From the NCBI GenBank assembly GCA_019057375.1, contig DXJF01000104.1, forward strand, positions 1 to 64,000: a DNA stretch of 64,000 nt, given 5' to 3'. A model generated the notes under the pieces. That model worked only from the letters and a program-made list of their open reading frames with translations, did no database searches and was not told the origin of the DNA. The DNA is from Candidatus Heimdallarchaeota archaeon. Lineage in GTDB: Archaea > Asgardarchaeota > Heimdallarchaeia > Heimdallarchaeales > Heimdallarchaeaceae. The position numbers and the translations under genes were made by a program. Positions 27,486-32,922 of the stretch are shown one piece after another (the first letter of the stretch is position 1; every line of letters begins with the position of its first letter).

Positions 27486-27848
27486 ATGCCAGATATACCA
27501 AATAAAGAAAAACAAGAGATCAGAATATTGGCAGAGGATTTCAGTTGTTTAATTGCAACCCTTTCATTCAAAAAAGGTTCTTATATCTTCTATGAAGTTT
27601 TCAAGTCTCTCTATAGTAGATCAGCTAGATGGAGATATTGTTTGATTTGTGGTAATATAGATTTACCTAAGGATTTTATCCATAAGGATCAAAACTACCC
27701 CCAAGTATCTTGTCACAAAATCCAGTCACTAATACCAACTTCTTGGATGAAACTAAGAGATCTCTTCATTAAAGGTAATTATAAGAAACTCCTTAAAGCA
27801 ATGGGGGTTCAAAATGTAGAAAAAAAGACAACCAGTGTCTCTAATTAA
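27486..27848 (+). CDS. CxxC-type putative zinc-finger protein, paralog 4 (divergent second ligand pair)
   Basis: MPDIP...ARWRYCLICG...SCHK...IPTSWMKLRDLF. Confidence 0.75.
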   Translation: MPDIPNKEKQEIRILAEDFSCLIATLSFKKGSYIFYEVFKSLYSRSARWRYCLICGNIDLPKDFIHKDQNYPQVSCHKIQSLIPTSWMKLRDLFIKGNYKKLLKAMGVQNVEKKTTSVSN

Positions 27849-27875: not shown

Positions 27876-28352
27876 TTAGGATGTCTCCCCAATTTTTATT
27901 GCTTCAGGCAATTTGTTTTCTTCTGCAACTGCGAATATTTCTCGTATAATTGGTATCTGACCTGGTTTGTCTGTTACTCCAGCATTTTCTAGAGCTCGTA
28001 TATGCTTCTTTGACATAAAGAAGTCCCGCAGTTTATACCATGATGTAGTAATTAAAACAGGAAAACGATTCGCACCTAAAGTACATTCATGGATTCTCTC
28101 TTTTAATTCAGATTTCTTCTCTTCTGAATACTTATCACTACCAAGCTCTCCATCATCAATCATCAACTCGGTGGGTTCAATAATCCCACACTTAAGACAG
28201 AATTTCCACCTGGCAGATCTAATATACAGTGCTTCAAAAGTTTCTGAATAAACTAATAGCCCTTCATTGAAGGGAGATACCCATAATCCCATTGCATAGC
28301 GTCTTGCAATTGATTTTATAAATGATTTTTCAGCATTAGATATTTTTGGCAT
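27876..28352 (-). CDS. CxxC-HxC putative zinc-finger protein, paralog 5
   Basis: ARWKFCLKCG...HEC...FPVLITTSWYKLRDFF. Confidence 0.8.
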   Translation of the reverse strand: MPKISNAEKSFIKSIARRYAMGLWVSPFNEGLLVYSETFEALYIRSARWKFCLKCGIIEPTELMIDDGELGSDKYSEEKKSELKERIHECTLGANRFPVLITTSWYKLRDFFMSKKHIRALENAGVTDKPGQIPIIREIFAVAEENKLPEAIKIGETS

Positions 28353-29191: not shown

Positions 29192-29305
29192 ATCAGGAGA
29201 GCCAGATGAAAACTTACAGCACACGAATATTCATCCAGCTCAGATCCTGATCCGTAGTAGACAAAGGGTCTGTTGTAGTGAGTGTTTCAGCAAGAAACAA
29301 TCAGC
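29192..29305 (-). ncRNA. Putative structured leader/ncRNA, cassette A: 23-nt conserved hairpin + ~30-nt linker + ~19-bp stem-loop
   Basis: GCTGATTGTTTCTTGCTGAAACA at 29283-29305 identical to 30875-30897; ATCAGGA/TCCTGAT, GAGC/GCTC, GATGAA/TTCATC stems at 29192-29251. Confidence 0.5.
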
Positions 29306-29396
29306 GTGTTAGAGATCAACCAGATTAAATGTTGATCAAGATATTATTGTAAGTGCAAGAAGAAGAAGAAAAGTGATTCATTCACTCCTCTAAATC

Positions 29397-29549
29397 TTAT
29401 ATATATCTTACTGCTACTAGAGCTCCTCCAAAAACTACACCAAGAGCGTATAGAAATACTGGTAGAGCGAATCTGAGAAATCTATATAGATATACTATTG
29501 GTCTTGAAATTTTGAGTTTATAAAACCACACAGGTCGTCTGTAATTCAT
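29397..29549 (-). CDS. 50-aa aromatic/basic membrane microprotein (MNYRRPVWFYKLKISRPIVYLYRFLRFALPVFLYALGVVFGGALVAVRYI)
   Basis: GGAGGTG SD before ATG; C-terminal TM helix. Confidence 0.65.
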   Translation of the reverse strand: MNYRRPVWFYKLKISRPIVYLYRFLRFALPVFLYALGVVFGGALVAVRYI

Positions 29550-29580
29550 TCCTTTTCACCTCCAAATCAGTTATAGAAAA

Positions 29581-29621
29581 AGGGAGAGCTTCAGCTTACC
29601 CTGGAAGAGGGTATTGCTGAA
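29581..29621 (-). promoter_or_regulatory. Switchable hairpin over the stop codon of the basic peptide, cassette A (attenuator-like)
   Basis: TTCAGC-AA-TACCCT-CTTCC-AGGGTA-A-GCTGAA; alternative AGGG(TA)AGC-TGAA-GCT(CT)CCCT followed by T-run. Confidence 0.5.
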
Positions 29622-29742
29622 AAGCTAAACCTAAACGAGATTTTGATCTTAGGGCGCGACGAGCTCTCTTGAACTGCTTTAACTCCTTTTGGAGTGCCTT
29701 AACCTTTTGGTCCAACAAGTTTGAAACTTCATCATACTTCAT
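29596..29742 (-). CDS. 48-aa Arg/Lys-rich coiled-coil microprotein, cassette A (MKYDEVSNLLDQKVKALQKELKQFKRARRALRSKSRLGLAFQQYPLPG)
   Basis: AAGGTGA SD; 24/48 identical to 31829-31975 without gaps. Confidence 0.8.
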   Translation of the reverse strand: MKYDEVSNLLDQKVKALQKELKQFKRARRALRSKSRLGLAFQQYPLPG

Positions 29743-29768
29743 TTTTTTCACCTTGTGATTTCTTTCAC

Positions 29769-29862
29769 ATGTAGGACTTGCTGCGACATCCTATATAAAG
29801 GAGTTTGAGTGGGAAATTGTTGTCACAAAGAGAAATGTGAATGTCGGACTTAATGCGACATC
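29769..29862 (-). promoter_or_regulatory. Cassette A promoter: TATA (CTTTATATAG, 29791-29800) with two copies of a 21-22 bp operator-like palindrome
   Basis: ATGTAGGACTTGCTGCGACATC (29769-29790) and ATGTCGGACTTAATGCGACATC (29841-29862). Confidence 0.65.
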
Positions 29863-30030
29863 ATAAACATATGTGCAAGGATGCACACACACGTAATTCA
29901 CAGATTTAAAGGGCTAAATAGTAGATATGAAGTATTTCAGCTTTGCGGCAAAAATTACCTATTGTGTTAAAAAGATGTAGTCTTTTGGACAACTATTTTG
30001 ATTAGCAGAACAAAAAAAGAGATCATAAAA

Positions 30031-30477
30031 CTACCTGATTCGATCAGTGGAATCAGCTTTAGATTTAGCCTTAGAGGTGGAAGAGGAGACAATCTCTGAA
30101 ACTTCAGGATAAGTAGTAACTGTAACTGCTTCAACATCCCTCGCGATGTCTGGTTCTACACCGATCTTCTGAAGTGCTTTGACATACTTATCTGTTAAGA
30201 AGAAATCTGCCATTTCAAGCCAACTAGTGGTTACTAAAACAGGAAATCTATTAAAATCTAATGCACATTTATGAGTATCTTCAGTTAAATCTTGTATTGT
30301 ATCAATAGTTCCACATTTCAAACATATTCTCAAACGAGAAGATTTTTTGTATAAATCATTCATTGCTTCTTGATACAAATGTAAGCCTTGATCAAGCGGA
30401 GCATCCCATAGATCAAGAGCAAAGCGTCTTGCTCGGGAGCGAATTACTTTCTTTTTTGCGTTAGACATATCAGCCAT
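30031..30477 (-). CDS. CxxC-HxC putative zinc-finger protein, paralog 6
   Basis: SRLRICLKCG...HKC...FPVLVTTSWLEMADFF. Confidence 0.8.
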   Translation of the reverse strand: MADMSNAKKKVIRSRARRFALDLWDAPLDQGLHLYQEAMNDLYKKSSRLRICLKCGTIDTIQDLTEDTHKCALDFNRFPVLVTTSWLEMADFFLTDKYVKALQKIGVEPDIARDVEAVTVTTYPEVSEIVSSSTSKAKSKADSTDRIR

Positions 30478-30489
30478 TGTGCATCCCTC

Positions 30490-30520
30490 ATGTATTATTA
30501 AGTCCTACATCATTATAAAG
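30490..30520 (-). promoter_or_regulatory. Paralog 6 promoter: TATA (CTTTATAATG) followed by the cassette A operator
   Basis: ATGTAGGACTTAATAATACAT on the minus strand, matching 29769 and 29841 sites. Confidence 0.65.
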
Positions 30521-30583
30521 TTTGGCCCTATGGCACAAATTTCCTAATCTTGGTTTATGTTTTAAATTAAAAAAAAAGAGAGT

Positions 30584-30733
30584 TTAAGATAAGTTTGCTA
30601 GAGATAGAAATGCTACTACAAACAAAGCAACTGAAAACACTATGAGTATTGTATACCCCAAGAGTGTTCCTGCGTTTGTTCTTGTTTTTTCTATCCACAT
30701 TTTTCTTTTAGTGTTATTCACGTTTTTGGCCAT
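30584..30733 (-). CDS. 49-aa single-TM microprotein, cassette B (MAKNVNNTKRKMWIEKTRTNAGTLLGYTILIVFSVALFVVAFLSLANLS)
   Basis: GAGGTGG SD; homolog of 28964-29113. Confidence 0.7.
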   Translation of the reverse strand: MAKNVNNTKRKMWIEKTRTNAGTLLGYTILIVFSVALFVVAFLSLANLS

Positions 30734-30779
30734 TTATTCCACCTCGGTTTTTTTATGCAGATTTCTCCTCATAGTTTTA

Positions 30780-30897
30780 GGATTAGAAGGACCAAACTTA
30801 CTGGCTAGCAAGGGGGATAGCTGTTCAGTCTGGTCTTCCCGATCCCATCCTGGTGATGAAATCTGACTAATGAATGTTTCAGCAAGAAACAATCAGC
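30780..30897 (-). ncRNA. Putative structured leader/ncRNA, cassette B
   Basis: Same 23-nt element (30875-30897), 29-nt linker, GGAT/ATCC + GGAA/TTCT + GACCAGACT/AGTTTGGTC stem at 30780-30845. Confidence 0.5.
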
Positions 30898-30975
30898 TTG
30901 ATTTTTTTTAATTTAATTTTTGTAAAAAAATTCGAAAGAAGAAAATGGTTTTGAACATTTTCTTCCCCGTTACAA

Positions 30976-31392
30976 TTATCTAACTACATATATGTCAGCA
31001 TTTGTTTTAGCAACTCTAACTAAAACATATTCTACACCATCAGTTATTGATATTCTAGTTAATTCCTCAGCCACATCATCAACTGCATCTAATCTAACTA
31101 AATCAACAACAGCTGTGTTACCTAAAGCTGCTCTAACCACATATACATCTGCATCATCAACCTCATTAGTTCTGAATACTTCAATTGCTGCATTATCAAC
31201 TGTAGCAATTACCACATAATCAGAGTAATTTTCAGTTGCAGCTACAACATTATTGTAAGTTAAATTTATACTTGCTAGAGATACGATCAAAGCTACGATC
31301 ATTGGTAGAACTACTAATAATATTCTAGTTAGGTTAATTTCAGGACTAGTAAAATTTAGTCGAGCTAATAATTCTTTAGCAGATCTTTTCAT
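30976..31392 (-). CDS. 138-aa single-TM protein with six 12-13-residue beta-type repeats
   Basis: AGGAGGTGA SD; TM ~24-42; repeats at residues 62-138 each end in Arg. Confidence 0.8.
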   Translation of the reverse strand: MKRSAKELLARLNFTSPEINLTRILLVVLPMIVALIVSLASINLTYNNVVAATENYSDYVVIATVDNAAIEVFRTNEVDDADVYVVRAALGNTAVVDLVRLDAVDDVAEELTRISITDGVEYVLVRVAKTNADIYVVR

Positions 31393-31459
31393 TCTTTTTC
31401 ACCTCCTAGAATTTTTCTTTTTCTCCTGAATCTTTTTCAAGTAATTGCAAAAAATTAAT

Positions 31460-31476
31460 GAGCCCTTCATGGGCTC
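31460..31476 (-). terminator. Hairpin GAGCCC-ATGAA-GGGCTC followed by a T-rich run
   Basis: Perfect 6-bp GC-rich stem, then ATTAATTTTTT on the minus strand. Confidence 0.35.
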
Positions 31477-31530
31477 GAATTTGATCGTTCAGAGAGAGAG
31501 TTGTTTAAACAGTGTATCCACCTTCACTAA

Positions 31531-31791
31531 TTAATAGTAAAGCGACCCAAACAGGAGTAATTTTTGAGCAAGTGCTTTGTCCTTAGCCTTTCTCACTTTG
31601 TTCTCTATGCTTTCCTTGGAAATCTCTTTATCAGGTCGGGATTTTTTGTTATCGCGATCAGATAACCCTTCCACAAGTTGCTTGATGAACGAATAATAAA
31701 GCTCCTCATCAATGAATTCAAAATCATACAAAACTTTCATATTGTCAATTACTATTTGGCGCACTGTTTCTACTTGAACTTTGGATGCCAT
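31531..31791 (-). CDS. 86-aa hypothetical protein, cassette B
   Basis: GAGGTGA SD; follows the basic peptide in operon order. Confidence 0.7.
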   Translation of the reverse strand: MASKVQVETVRQIVIDNMKVLYDFEFIDEELYYSFIKQLVEGLSDRDNKKSRPDKEISKESIENKVRKAKDKALAQKLLLFGSLYY

Positions 31792-31814
31792 TCATTTCAC
31801 CTCTATTTGAAAAT

Positions 31815-31854
31815 GGTAAGACTCAAGCTTACCCGTAAATCAGGTATTGCCTGA
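31815..31854 (-). promoter_or_regulatory. Switchable hairpin over the stop codon of the basic peptide, cassette B
   Basis: TCAGGC-AA-TACCTG-ATTTA-CGGGTA-A-GCTTGA (G-U pairs); alternative GGTAAG-N7-CTTACC followed by ATTTT. Confidence 0.5.
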
Positions 31855-31975
31855 TTGGAAATCTAGAACGAGCTTTTGCTCTTCTAGTGCGACGAGCTCT
31901 TTTGAGCTTATTCAACTCCTTGCGGAGTGCCTTAATCTTTCGATCCAACATTAAACTTACTTCTTGTCCATACAT
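31829..31975 (-). CDS. 48-aa Arg/Lys-rich coiled-coil microprotein, cassette B (MYGQEVSLMLDRKIKALRKELNKLKRARRTRRAKARSRFPIRQYLIYG)
   Basis: GAGGTG SD; homolog of 29596-29742. Confidence 0.8.
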   Translation of the reverse strand: MYGQEVSLMLDRKIKALRKELNKLKRARRTRRAKARSRFPIRQYLIYG

Positions 31976-31986
31976 TTCTTTACACC

Positions 31987-32175
31987 TCAAATGTTTGCAA
32001 ATCTCCTTAGGTTCAGGTTAGAGTAGAAGCTAATAGTTGCAGTCAAGTATTGCTCATAGATATCCAATTTCTTGTCTGAATATCTGTTAGATAGAGTTTT
32101 CATGAGTTTATTGAGATCCTCGTAAAGTCTTCGAACCTCGGGATCCAGCAGTTTTTTTATTTCGTTTGTATTCAT
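31987..32175 (-). CDS. 62-aa helical hypothetical protein, first gene of cassette B
   Basis: GAGG SD 8 nt before ATG; stop overlaps the SD of the next ORF. Confidence 0.65.
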   Translation of the reverse strand: MNTNEIKKLLDPEVRRLYEDLNKLMKTLSNRYSDKKLDIYEQYLTATISFYSNLNLRRFANI

Positions 32176-32496: not shown

Positions 32497-32922
32497 TTGC
32501 CTGTAATTAAAGATGCTGAAAAAACACAAATCAAATCCAGAGCCCGTAGATATGCTCAAGATCTAGCTGATGCTCCCTTAAGTTCTGGTTTAGAATTATA
32601 TAGTGAAACTATCTCAAAGCTCCATGATCGTTCTTCCCGATTGCGAATTTGTCTAAAGTGTGGAACTATTGATAAAAAAGAGAGTCTTACTAATAGTAAT
32701 CATCATTGTGCATCTGGCATTGATAAACTCCCTGTTATCATTCTTACAAACTGGGTCATTTTGAAAAATTTCTTTCTCACTGATGAATACACTAAAGCGT
32801 TGCAAAAGCTTGGGGTTGAACCCATCACTGCTAAAACTGTTCCAAGTACAACTTCTTCCAAAGAAGAGAGTGCAGACACCAAAAAACAAATGGAAGAAAC
32901 ATTAGCTGATACAGCCAAGTAG
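32497..32922 (+). CDS. CxxC-HxC putative zinc-finger protein, paralog 7
   Basis: TTG start after GAGGT SD; SRLRICLKCG...HHC...LPVIILTNWVILKNFF; closest to paralog 6. Confidence 0.8.
   Translation: MPVIKDAEKTQIKSRARRYAQDLADAPLSSGLELYSETISKLHDRSSRLRICLKCGTIDKKESLTNSNHHCASGIDKLPVIILTNWVILKNFFLTDEYTKALQKLGVEPITAKTVPSTTSSKEESADTKKQMEETLADTAK

Follow-up and report, generated by a model that had tools for sequence, protein, structure and literature searches.

Two peptide genes that end in a hairpin

The 64,000-nucleotide (nt) stretch of DNA analysed here (the window; positions 1 to 64,000 of contig DXJF01000104.1) comes from a Candidatus Heimdallarchaeota archaeon whose 3.47-Mb assembly (GCA_019057375.1) has a G+C content of 33%. 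It carries two genes for small Arg-rich peptides, A and B, and in each of them the stop codon is enclosed by an RNA hairpin, which is the subject of this study. Genes, hairpins and sequence signals described below lie on the minus strand unless a strand is given. Peptide A (29599-29742, stop codon 29596-29598) is 48 amino acids (aa) long and combines a zipper-like helix with an Arg-rich stretch (profile hidden Markov model (HMM), E = 1e-25); a TATA-like box lies upstream of it at 29798-29791. Peptide B, also of 48 aa, was called as an open reading frame (ORF; 31832-31975, stop codon 31829-31831). A Shine-Dalgarno sequence (SD) precedes both genes and, as the initial annotation had reported and the ORF coordinates bear out, both end in GGG-TAA-GCT on the coding strand.

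Folding also bore out the hairpins described there. Hairpin A (29590-29621) has an outer stem of 6 bp, a 2x1 internal loop, an inner stem of 6 bp and a 5-nt loop, with a predicted energy of -14.1 kcal/mol (z = -4.69). Hairpin B (31823-31854) follows the same plan with two G-U pairs (-12.8 kcal/mol, z = -3.91), and three of its pairs are altered on both sides relative to A. None of 200 shuffles of either 32-nt segment matched the native energy. In a 78-nt context hairpin A gains 3-4 bp, extending to 29587-29626 at -20.1 kcal/mol. As to the earlier claim that the compensatory and G-U changes work only on the coding strand, hairpin B is not formed on the plus strand; the fold of A is equally stable on the opposite strand, where all its pairs are Watson-Crick. 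A covariance model of the hairpin (R1) matched A with E = 9e-8 and B with E = 2.5e-7, and found no further copies in the whole 3.47-Mb genome. The window contains no Rfam match at the gathering score, and a tRNA search was also without result.

A covarying RNA element across the peptide family

The source genome encodes four members of the peptide family. Relatives fall into long types of 48-49 aa, which mostly end in Gly, and short types of 43-45 aa, whose stop codon overlaps or abuts the next start codon. In long-type genes the last ~11 codons, the stop codon and the first 6-10 bases of the spacer form a two-tier stem-loop; the 3' arm is made of the first 6-10 nt past the stop, and the stop codon itself sits in the 3' arm or in the internal loop. 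The codon-aligned 3' ends of the long types align without gaps, and RNAalifold recovers both stems. Three tail codons form the outer stem with the first 4-7 non-coding bases past the stop, and these bases change whenever the paired codons change. There are ~10 different arm pairs, encoding for example FQQ, YQR, TQR, VQR, FGG, YGE, IGQ, IRY and IRQ, and these stems, of differing register, all lie at one position with respect to the stop. Double-sided changes occur in 10 of the 15 pairs across 24 homologous gene ends. Because relatives keep the fold through matching base changes, we regard it as a real RNA element.

The covariation in further homologues to which the initial annotation had pointed supports the stop hairpin: the covariation score was 0.393, as against 0.11-0.17 for controls slid along the alignment, and none of 500 shuffles reached it. 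When the 12 nt past the stop were swapped among 10 subfamily representatives, the native combination gave -153 kcal/mol as against -112 +/- 8 kcal/mol for the swaps (0 of 20,000). An alignment-free measure gave the same picture, the probability that the first 6 nt past the stop pair back into the coding tail being 0.86 for long types and 0.24 for short-type paralogues, with 0.31 for 1000 other genes of the genome. The mean minimum free energy (MFE) of the stop region is likewise -18.4 in long types, -8.9 in short types, which are without the hairpin, and -9.2 +/- 3.7 across the genome. Core pairs include 23 G-U and 7 A-C combinations, and the structure is therefore read on the sense RNA. We conclude that the stop hairpin is a selected RNA structure of the sense transcript, uncatalogued and shared across the family.

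The sequences of the loop and internal loop are not conserved. Pro (CCN) is encoded opposite Gly (GGN) in most subfamilies, while B instead has Leu (CTG) opposite Gly. Past the Arg-rich stretch the tail of the peptide is variable in sequence, yet it always provides the 5' arms, and for this reason it looks shaped by the RNA. In type III peptides, which end in Ile or Met (G000:C150:117126-117269 (L003), L014, L020, L022, L041 and L047), hairpins occur in other registers in the tail or near it; these genes have no T-run, and their partner is a conserved 34-aa basic peptide.

B-type genes have a further fold. The outer stem of hairpin B is intact in three of seven B-type orthologues, namely B and two near-identical sequences. 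A competing 7-bp hairpin that lies wholly in the coding tail of B (31838-31856) is 100% paired in all six distinct B-type sequences. In the ensemble of B the stop-hairpin fold takes 0.54 as against 0.03 for this competing inner hairpin, while in three B-type orthologues the inner hairpin dominates together with a different outer stem that still encloses the stop. One lineage shows concerted third-position changes in an Arg, a Tyr and a Gly codon, from AGG/TAC/GGG to AGA/TAT/GGA (31838-31856 with 31832-31834), and these synonymous changes leave both competing helices paired; as a single lineage event, this is no more than suggestive of compensation. B-type genes may thus have two mutually exclusive folds, with the competitor upstream rather than downstream of the stop hairpin.

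The peptides, their messages and their neighbours

The core of the peptide is nearly invariant across subfamilies, and the ratio of nonsynonymous to synonymous polymorphism (pN/pS) is 0.42 when pooled and 0.44 for the tail. By these substitution patterns the peptide is a conserved protein under purifying selection. The AlphaFold (AF2) model predicts a single helix of residues 2-43 (mean predicted local distance difference test score, 85), and the Arg run, with 7-8 Arg in 14 residues, falls on this continuous helix. Comparison of the peptide with Pfam, PHROGs, NCBIfam, PDB sequences and the ESM Atlas returned nothing beyond generic coiled coils. The family is narrowly distributed: in the genus of the host 20 of 24 genomes have it, both genomes of a sister genus show it weakly, all genomes with peptide relatives are Candidatus Heimdallarchaeota, and among 400 genomes of the phylum the long-type profile (A5) has matches in only 1 of 85 genera, that of the host. 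Only 24 clusters were recovered at E <= 1e-10 among 1.84 billion representative proteins, and a metagenome scan gave four loci only.

The messages of the long types are structured beyond the stop. Across 26 ungapped genes RNAalifold recovers small hairpins lined up in a chain within the coding sequence, each with a 4-5-bp stem and an A-rich tetraloop; they are 72-94% paired, with one or two covarying pairs each. The chain occupies 29662-29712 in A (29712-29701, 29695-29682 and 29675-29662) and 31863-31945 in B (31945-31934, 31928-31915, 31908-31895 and 31887-31863). The codons beneath these small stems are rare in the genome (CTC 7%, GAG 22%, CGT 10%, CGC 3%) and are kept in 16 to 24 of the 26 sequences, across subfamilies. 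Full-gene folding z-scores average -3.0 in long types (n = 25), -2.7 in type III genes and -0.36 in short-type paralogues (n = 20), which encode the same protein motif with other codons.

Both peptides are followed by another small gene, referred to here as gene 2. In cassette A, gene 2 encodes a 50-aa single-pass membrane peptide (29397-29549, SD at 29556-29563) that is conserved in A-type and TQRIPLAG-type cassettes. In cassette B it encodes an 86-aa orphan protein (31531-31791, SD at 31797-31803), conserved in B-type, GGNP-type and one IGQIP-type cassette. The downstream partner varies by subfamily: it is a membrane peptide of 47-69 aa, the ~86-aa orphan, a 34-aa basic peptide or, in short types, an acidic coiled coil of 70-77 aa, and the gap from stop to gene 2 is 25, 26, 27, 37 or 46 nt, varying in frame. 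These downstream genes encode orphan proteins of 34-132 aa that belong to no Pfam, NCBIfam or PHROG family and are not linked to arginine. Peptide B is itself preceded by a 62-aa ORF (31987-32175) that is weakly paralogous to the zipper half of the peptides (HMM E = 6e-4). The stop codon of this ORF overlaps the SD of B, which makes B the second gene of an operon. Two other genomes also conserve the 62-aa ORF in their B-type cassettes.

Other observations concern the surroundings of the cassettes. Short-type peptides (G000:C145:97671-97793 (L004), L009, L010, L039, L040 and L052-L061) are always followed by a very acidic coiled coil of 60-77 aa, whose start codon overlaps the stop codon of the peptide or lies no more than 10 nt away from it; this suggests that the two form a pair of basic and acidic helices. 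Two identical copies of a 23-nt element, at 29283-29305 and 30875-30897, are the only ones in the 3.47-Mb genome; both lie ~80-90 nt downstream of a cassette gene, and a sequence resembling it is found downstream of gene 2 in TQRIPLAG-type cassettes of relatives. Interleaved with cassettes A and B are four paralogues of an orphan protein of ~120-158 aa with a Cys-x2-Cys motif (27486-27848, plus; 27876-28352, minus; 30031-30477, minus; 32497-32922, plus), which has no Pfam, NCBIfam or PHROG match.

Transcript ends, translation and rival explanations

The T-runs that the initial annotation had placed ahead of the next SD are real. Hairpin A is followed by a pyrimidine tract (29576-29586) that includes a T5 run (29581-29577) starting 5 nt past the extended stem, and hairpin B by a T4 run (31810-31813) 9 nt past the stem. 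A-type orthologues have T5-T7 at the corresponding place, in the GGNP subfamily and in L024 a T7-8 run begins 0-2 nt past the stem, L044 and L063 have T7 after a C/T tract, and one TQRIPLAG member has T5. Automatic distances from hairpin to T-run were not used, as they are confounded by long-range A/T pairing in the MFE structure. Genome-wide, T-runs of at least 5 occur within 60 nt of the stop in 40% of genes, and runs of at least 7 in only 10.8%, which makes the long T-runs in operon spacers of 25-50 nt notable. A hairpin with a T-rich tail also stands at the ends of other small genes of the cassettes, with 6 cases as against 1.5 expected (29367-29391, 30935-30968 and 31460-31476 among them), and the hairpin behind the gene of the 50-aa membrane peptide is conserved in other genomes, its loop varying, within both A-type and TQRIPLAG-type cassettes. 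The layout proposed for an attenuator is thus present in part: the ORF ends in a stable, selected hairpin that is followed by a pyrimidine or T tract and an SD, while the switch between two hairpins and the role of leader peptide are not supported.

From this arrangement we consider that the stop hairpin probably controls the amount of message, or the translation, that reaches the next small gene. As a tentative explanation, to which we give somewhat less than even odds, we propose that transcript 3' ends arise at the hairpin, or are protected by it, in the interval from the peptide cistron to gene 2, and that this effect depends on translation. Part of the transcripts would end past the peptide cistron at the stem-loop and its pyrimidine or U tract, or such ends would be protected, and the ratio of peptide message to the message of gene 2, 25-50 nt downstream, would be set by the hairpin. 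Since the ORF ends inside the hairpin, a ribosome completing the peptide must melt the structure, and a ribosome terminating on the stop codon would exclude it; this would amount to terminator occlusion, as in pyrBI, rather than to a two-hairpin switch. Because a ribosome on the stop and the structure cannot coexist, the action of the hairpin should depend on translation close behind the polymerase. Terminators placed a few bp past a stop codon are repressed by ribosomes (PMC4824070), attenuation at pyrL requires tight coupling (PMC5021804), and in Haloferax a hairpin within a coding region terminated 59% of transcripts (PMC7237163). We infer both the formation of 3' ends by the hairpin and its modulation by translation.

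Several observations weigh against this explanation. The T-run is not universal: B has T4 only, most TQRIPLAG members have T3, and L007, L017, L018 and the type III genes are without one. Genome-wide, gene ends with a hairpin and T-run are rare: 84 of 2173 genes have one, and the reverse-complement control gives 49. For termination, archaeal polymerases use U-tracts and do not need a hairpin (PMC8716108). Finally, the peptide message is structured beyond the stop hairpin, which a simple terminator leaves unexplained.

In E. coli pyrBI (pyrL) and rph-pyrE, and in engineered terminators next to a stop codon, an ORF likewise runs into, or ends at, a stem-loop upstream of the next gene, followed there by a U-run (PMC5021804, PMC4824070), and steric hindrance by a ribosome that has reached the end of the ORF keeps the hairpin from forming. 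Here, however, the host is archaeal, and its polymerase is not known to depend on hairpins; the upstream ORF encodes a conserved protein that looks functional, the U-run is strong in some subfamilies only and no nucleotide-sensing pause is evident. The trpL, hisL, leuL and thrL leaders share a small ORF, hairpins, a T-run and a downstream SD, but in our case no antiterminator/terminator pair is supported, there is no cognate-codon logic with the cargo, the sequence of the peptide is conserved and selected, and B is not the first ORF. The hairpin after pufA in the Rhodobacter puf operon and hairpins of the repetitive extragenic palindromic (REP) type are intercistronic stabilisers that set the ratios of cistrons. 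They too place a stem-loop between the cistron of a small abundant peptide and downstream cistrons, with more upstream than downstream message expected; they are bacterial and lie in the spacer, whereas the present hairpin lies over the stop codon. Archaeal terminators consist of U4-7 tracts that act with aCPSF1/FttA (PMC8716108), and a hairpin motif is found at Haloferax termination sites (PMC7237163). Most subfamilies have a U/T tract past the element as well, and a hairpin in a coding sequence can terminate in Haloferax, but those are general signals at gene ends, whereas ours is a family-specific, covarying structure within an operon that encloses the stop.

The initial annotation had described the two hairpins as mutually exclusive with downstream alternatives, the choice gating expression of the cargo through translation of the peptide. 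In such a leader-peptide attenuator, the stop hairpin would compete with a downstream hairpin next to the T-run, and the progress of the ribosome over Arg codons would decide; we consider this very unlikely. The alternative pairings can be drawn as written in A and B and end next to the T5 and T4 runs, A-type orthologues retain a compatible pyrimidine tract, and B-type genes do have two competing folds, though with the competitor upstream in the coding sequence. The pairings are weak, however (A -9.0 kcal/mol, z = -1.3; B -6.2 kcal/mol, z = -0.2), 5-7 kcal/mol weaker than the stop hairpin. Across 25 sequences the z-scores of the downstream hairpin range from +1.7 to -1.5, indistinguishable from shuffles, as against -3.9 to -4.7 for the stop hairpins. 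It is not conserved, being absent from the GGNP subfamily, which has the longest T-runs; there T7-8 abuts the stop hairpin, which would therefore be the terminator-like arm and not an anti-terminator. Judging from the size of the ribosomal footprint, a pause of the ribosome over the Arg codons (codons 26-38) would leave both arms of the hairpin uncovered, and no position of the ribosome would cover the 5' arms and yet free the stop region, with the 3' arm, for downstream pairing. A and B are not classical leaders, because they are conserved helical proteins, B comes second in its operon and the cargo, made of orphan micro-proteins, is unrelated to arginine; this cargo and the ribosomal footprint likewise leave sensing of arginine unsupported. 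As a comparator, a crude scan of the genome for Trp or His leader ORFs gave none that was convincing. Recoding by selenocysteine or pyrrolysine, SECIS or PYLIS elements, read-through or frameshifting was also rejected, because both the type of stop codon (TAA, TGA and TAG among orthologues) and the frame of the gap vary, as was a K-turn or L7Ae site, since the internal loop is without tandem G-A pairs.

Other readings keep the stop hairpin and assign it a different role. It could act on translation, by hiding the SD of gene 2 or by holding the terminating ribosome for re-initiation, which we think unlikely. The SD lies 12-15 nt past the stop in five of six GGNP-type sequences, where blocking of the stop region, as a ribosome would do, raises its predicted unpaired probability from 0.24-0.61 to 0.68-0.86, and the direct stop/start overlap of short types shows coupling to be ancestral to the family. 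Elsewhere the SD is 25-35 nt past the stop, outside the hairpin, its accessibility does not change in A (0.50 to 0.38), B (0.14 to 0.19) or the other subfamilies, and each gene 2 has its own strong SD; an SD sequestered by the structure and opened by the ribosome was therefore kept for the GGNP subfamily only, and not for A or B. An autogenous control is improbable to a similar degree. Here the Arg-rich helix would bind its own message at the stop hairpin, at the small A-loop hairpins or at both, and thereby exert feedback on its translation, on its stability or on read-through into gene 2, in the manner of ribosomal proteins or arginine-rich-motif (ARM) peptides. The density of Arg on a continuous helix speaks for it, as do the small stems built on rare codons conserved across subfamilies and the fact that messages of long types are structured over their full length and those of short types, which have fewer Arg and more Lys, are not. 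Against it, the stop hairpin lacks conservation in its loops, an unusual trait in a site that a protein recognises specifically, and the co-occurrence of Arg-rich tail and hairpins amounts to a single phylogenetic split. ARM peptides form known pairs with hairpins in lambda N-boxB, HIV Rev-RRE and BIV Tat-TAR, and the lambda pair controls read-through of terminators. A helical Arg-rich peptide, small stem-loops with A-rich loops and a hairpin with an internal loop are common to these and to our case; the differences are that the present loops have no conserved sequence and no GNRA-like pentaloop, and that the hairpins lie inside the coding sequence of the peptide itself. That the micropeptide recognises both its own stop hairpin and the A-loop hairpins, and so controls read-through or translation into the neighbouring gene, is a decidedly doubtful possibility. 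If true, it would be a peptide-RNA circuit like N/boxB or Rev/RRE that is native to an Asgard archaeon. That the inverted repeat has no function as RNA, and is maintained by a mutational process (templated correction of quasi-palindromes) or acts at the level of DNA, is highly improbable. Correction of palindromes can mimic compensatory change, and the stability of hairpin A on the opposite strand would fit. The excess of G-U over A-C pairs and the loss of hairpin B on the plus strand argue against this reading, as do the persistence of internal loops and bulges, the constant position of ~10 stems of differing register relative to the stop and the fact that the 3' arm in every case follows a coding arm on which selection for the protein acts as well.

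Few cis-acting RNA structures are documented in archaea, and the literature searched held no Asgard archaeal cis-acting RNA structure over a stop codon; the stop hairpin is supported by covariation and not by a single fold. The cassettes are small two-gene units with natural variants that have a strong T-run, a weak one or none, together with paralogues that are free of the hairpin. Because these variants exist, the long-standing question of whether archaea control transcript ends through hairpins and the position of the ribosome is directly testable in reporters. The family also provides a protein-coding gene in which the C-terminal tail and the choice of codons are largely dictated by RNA structure.

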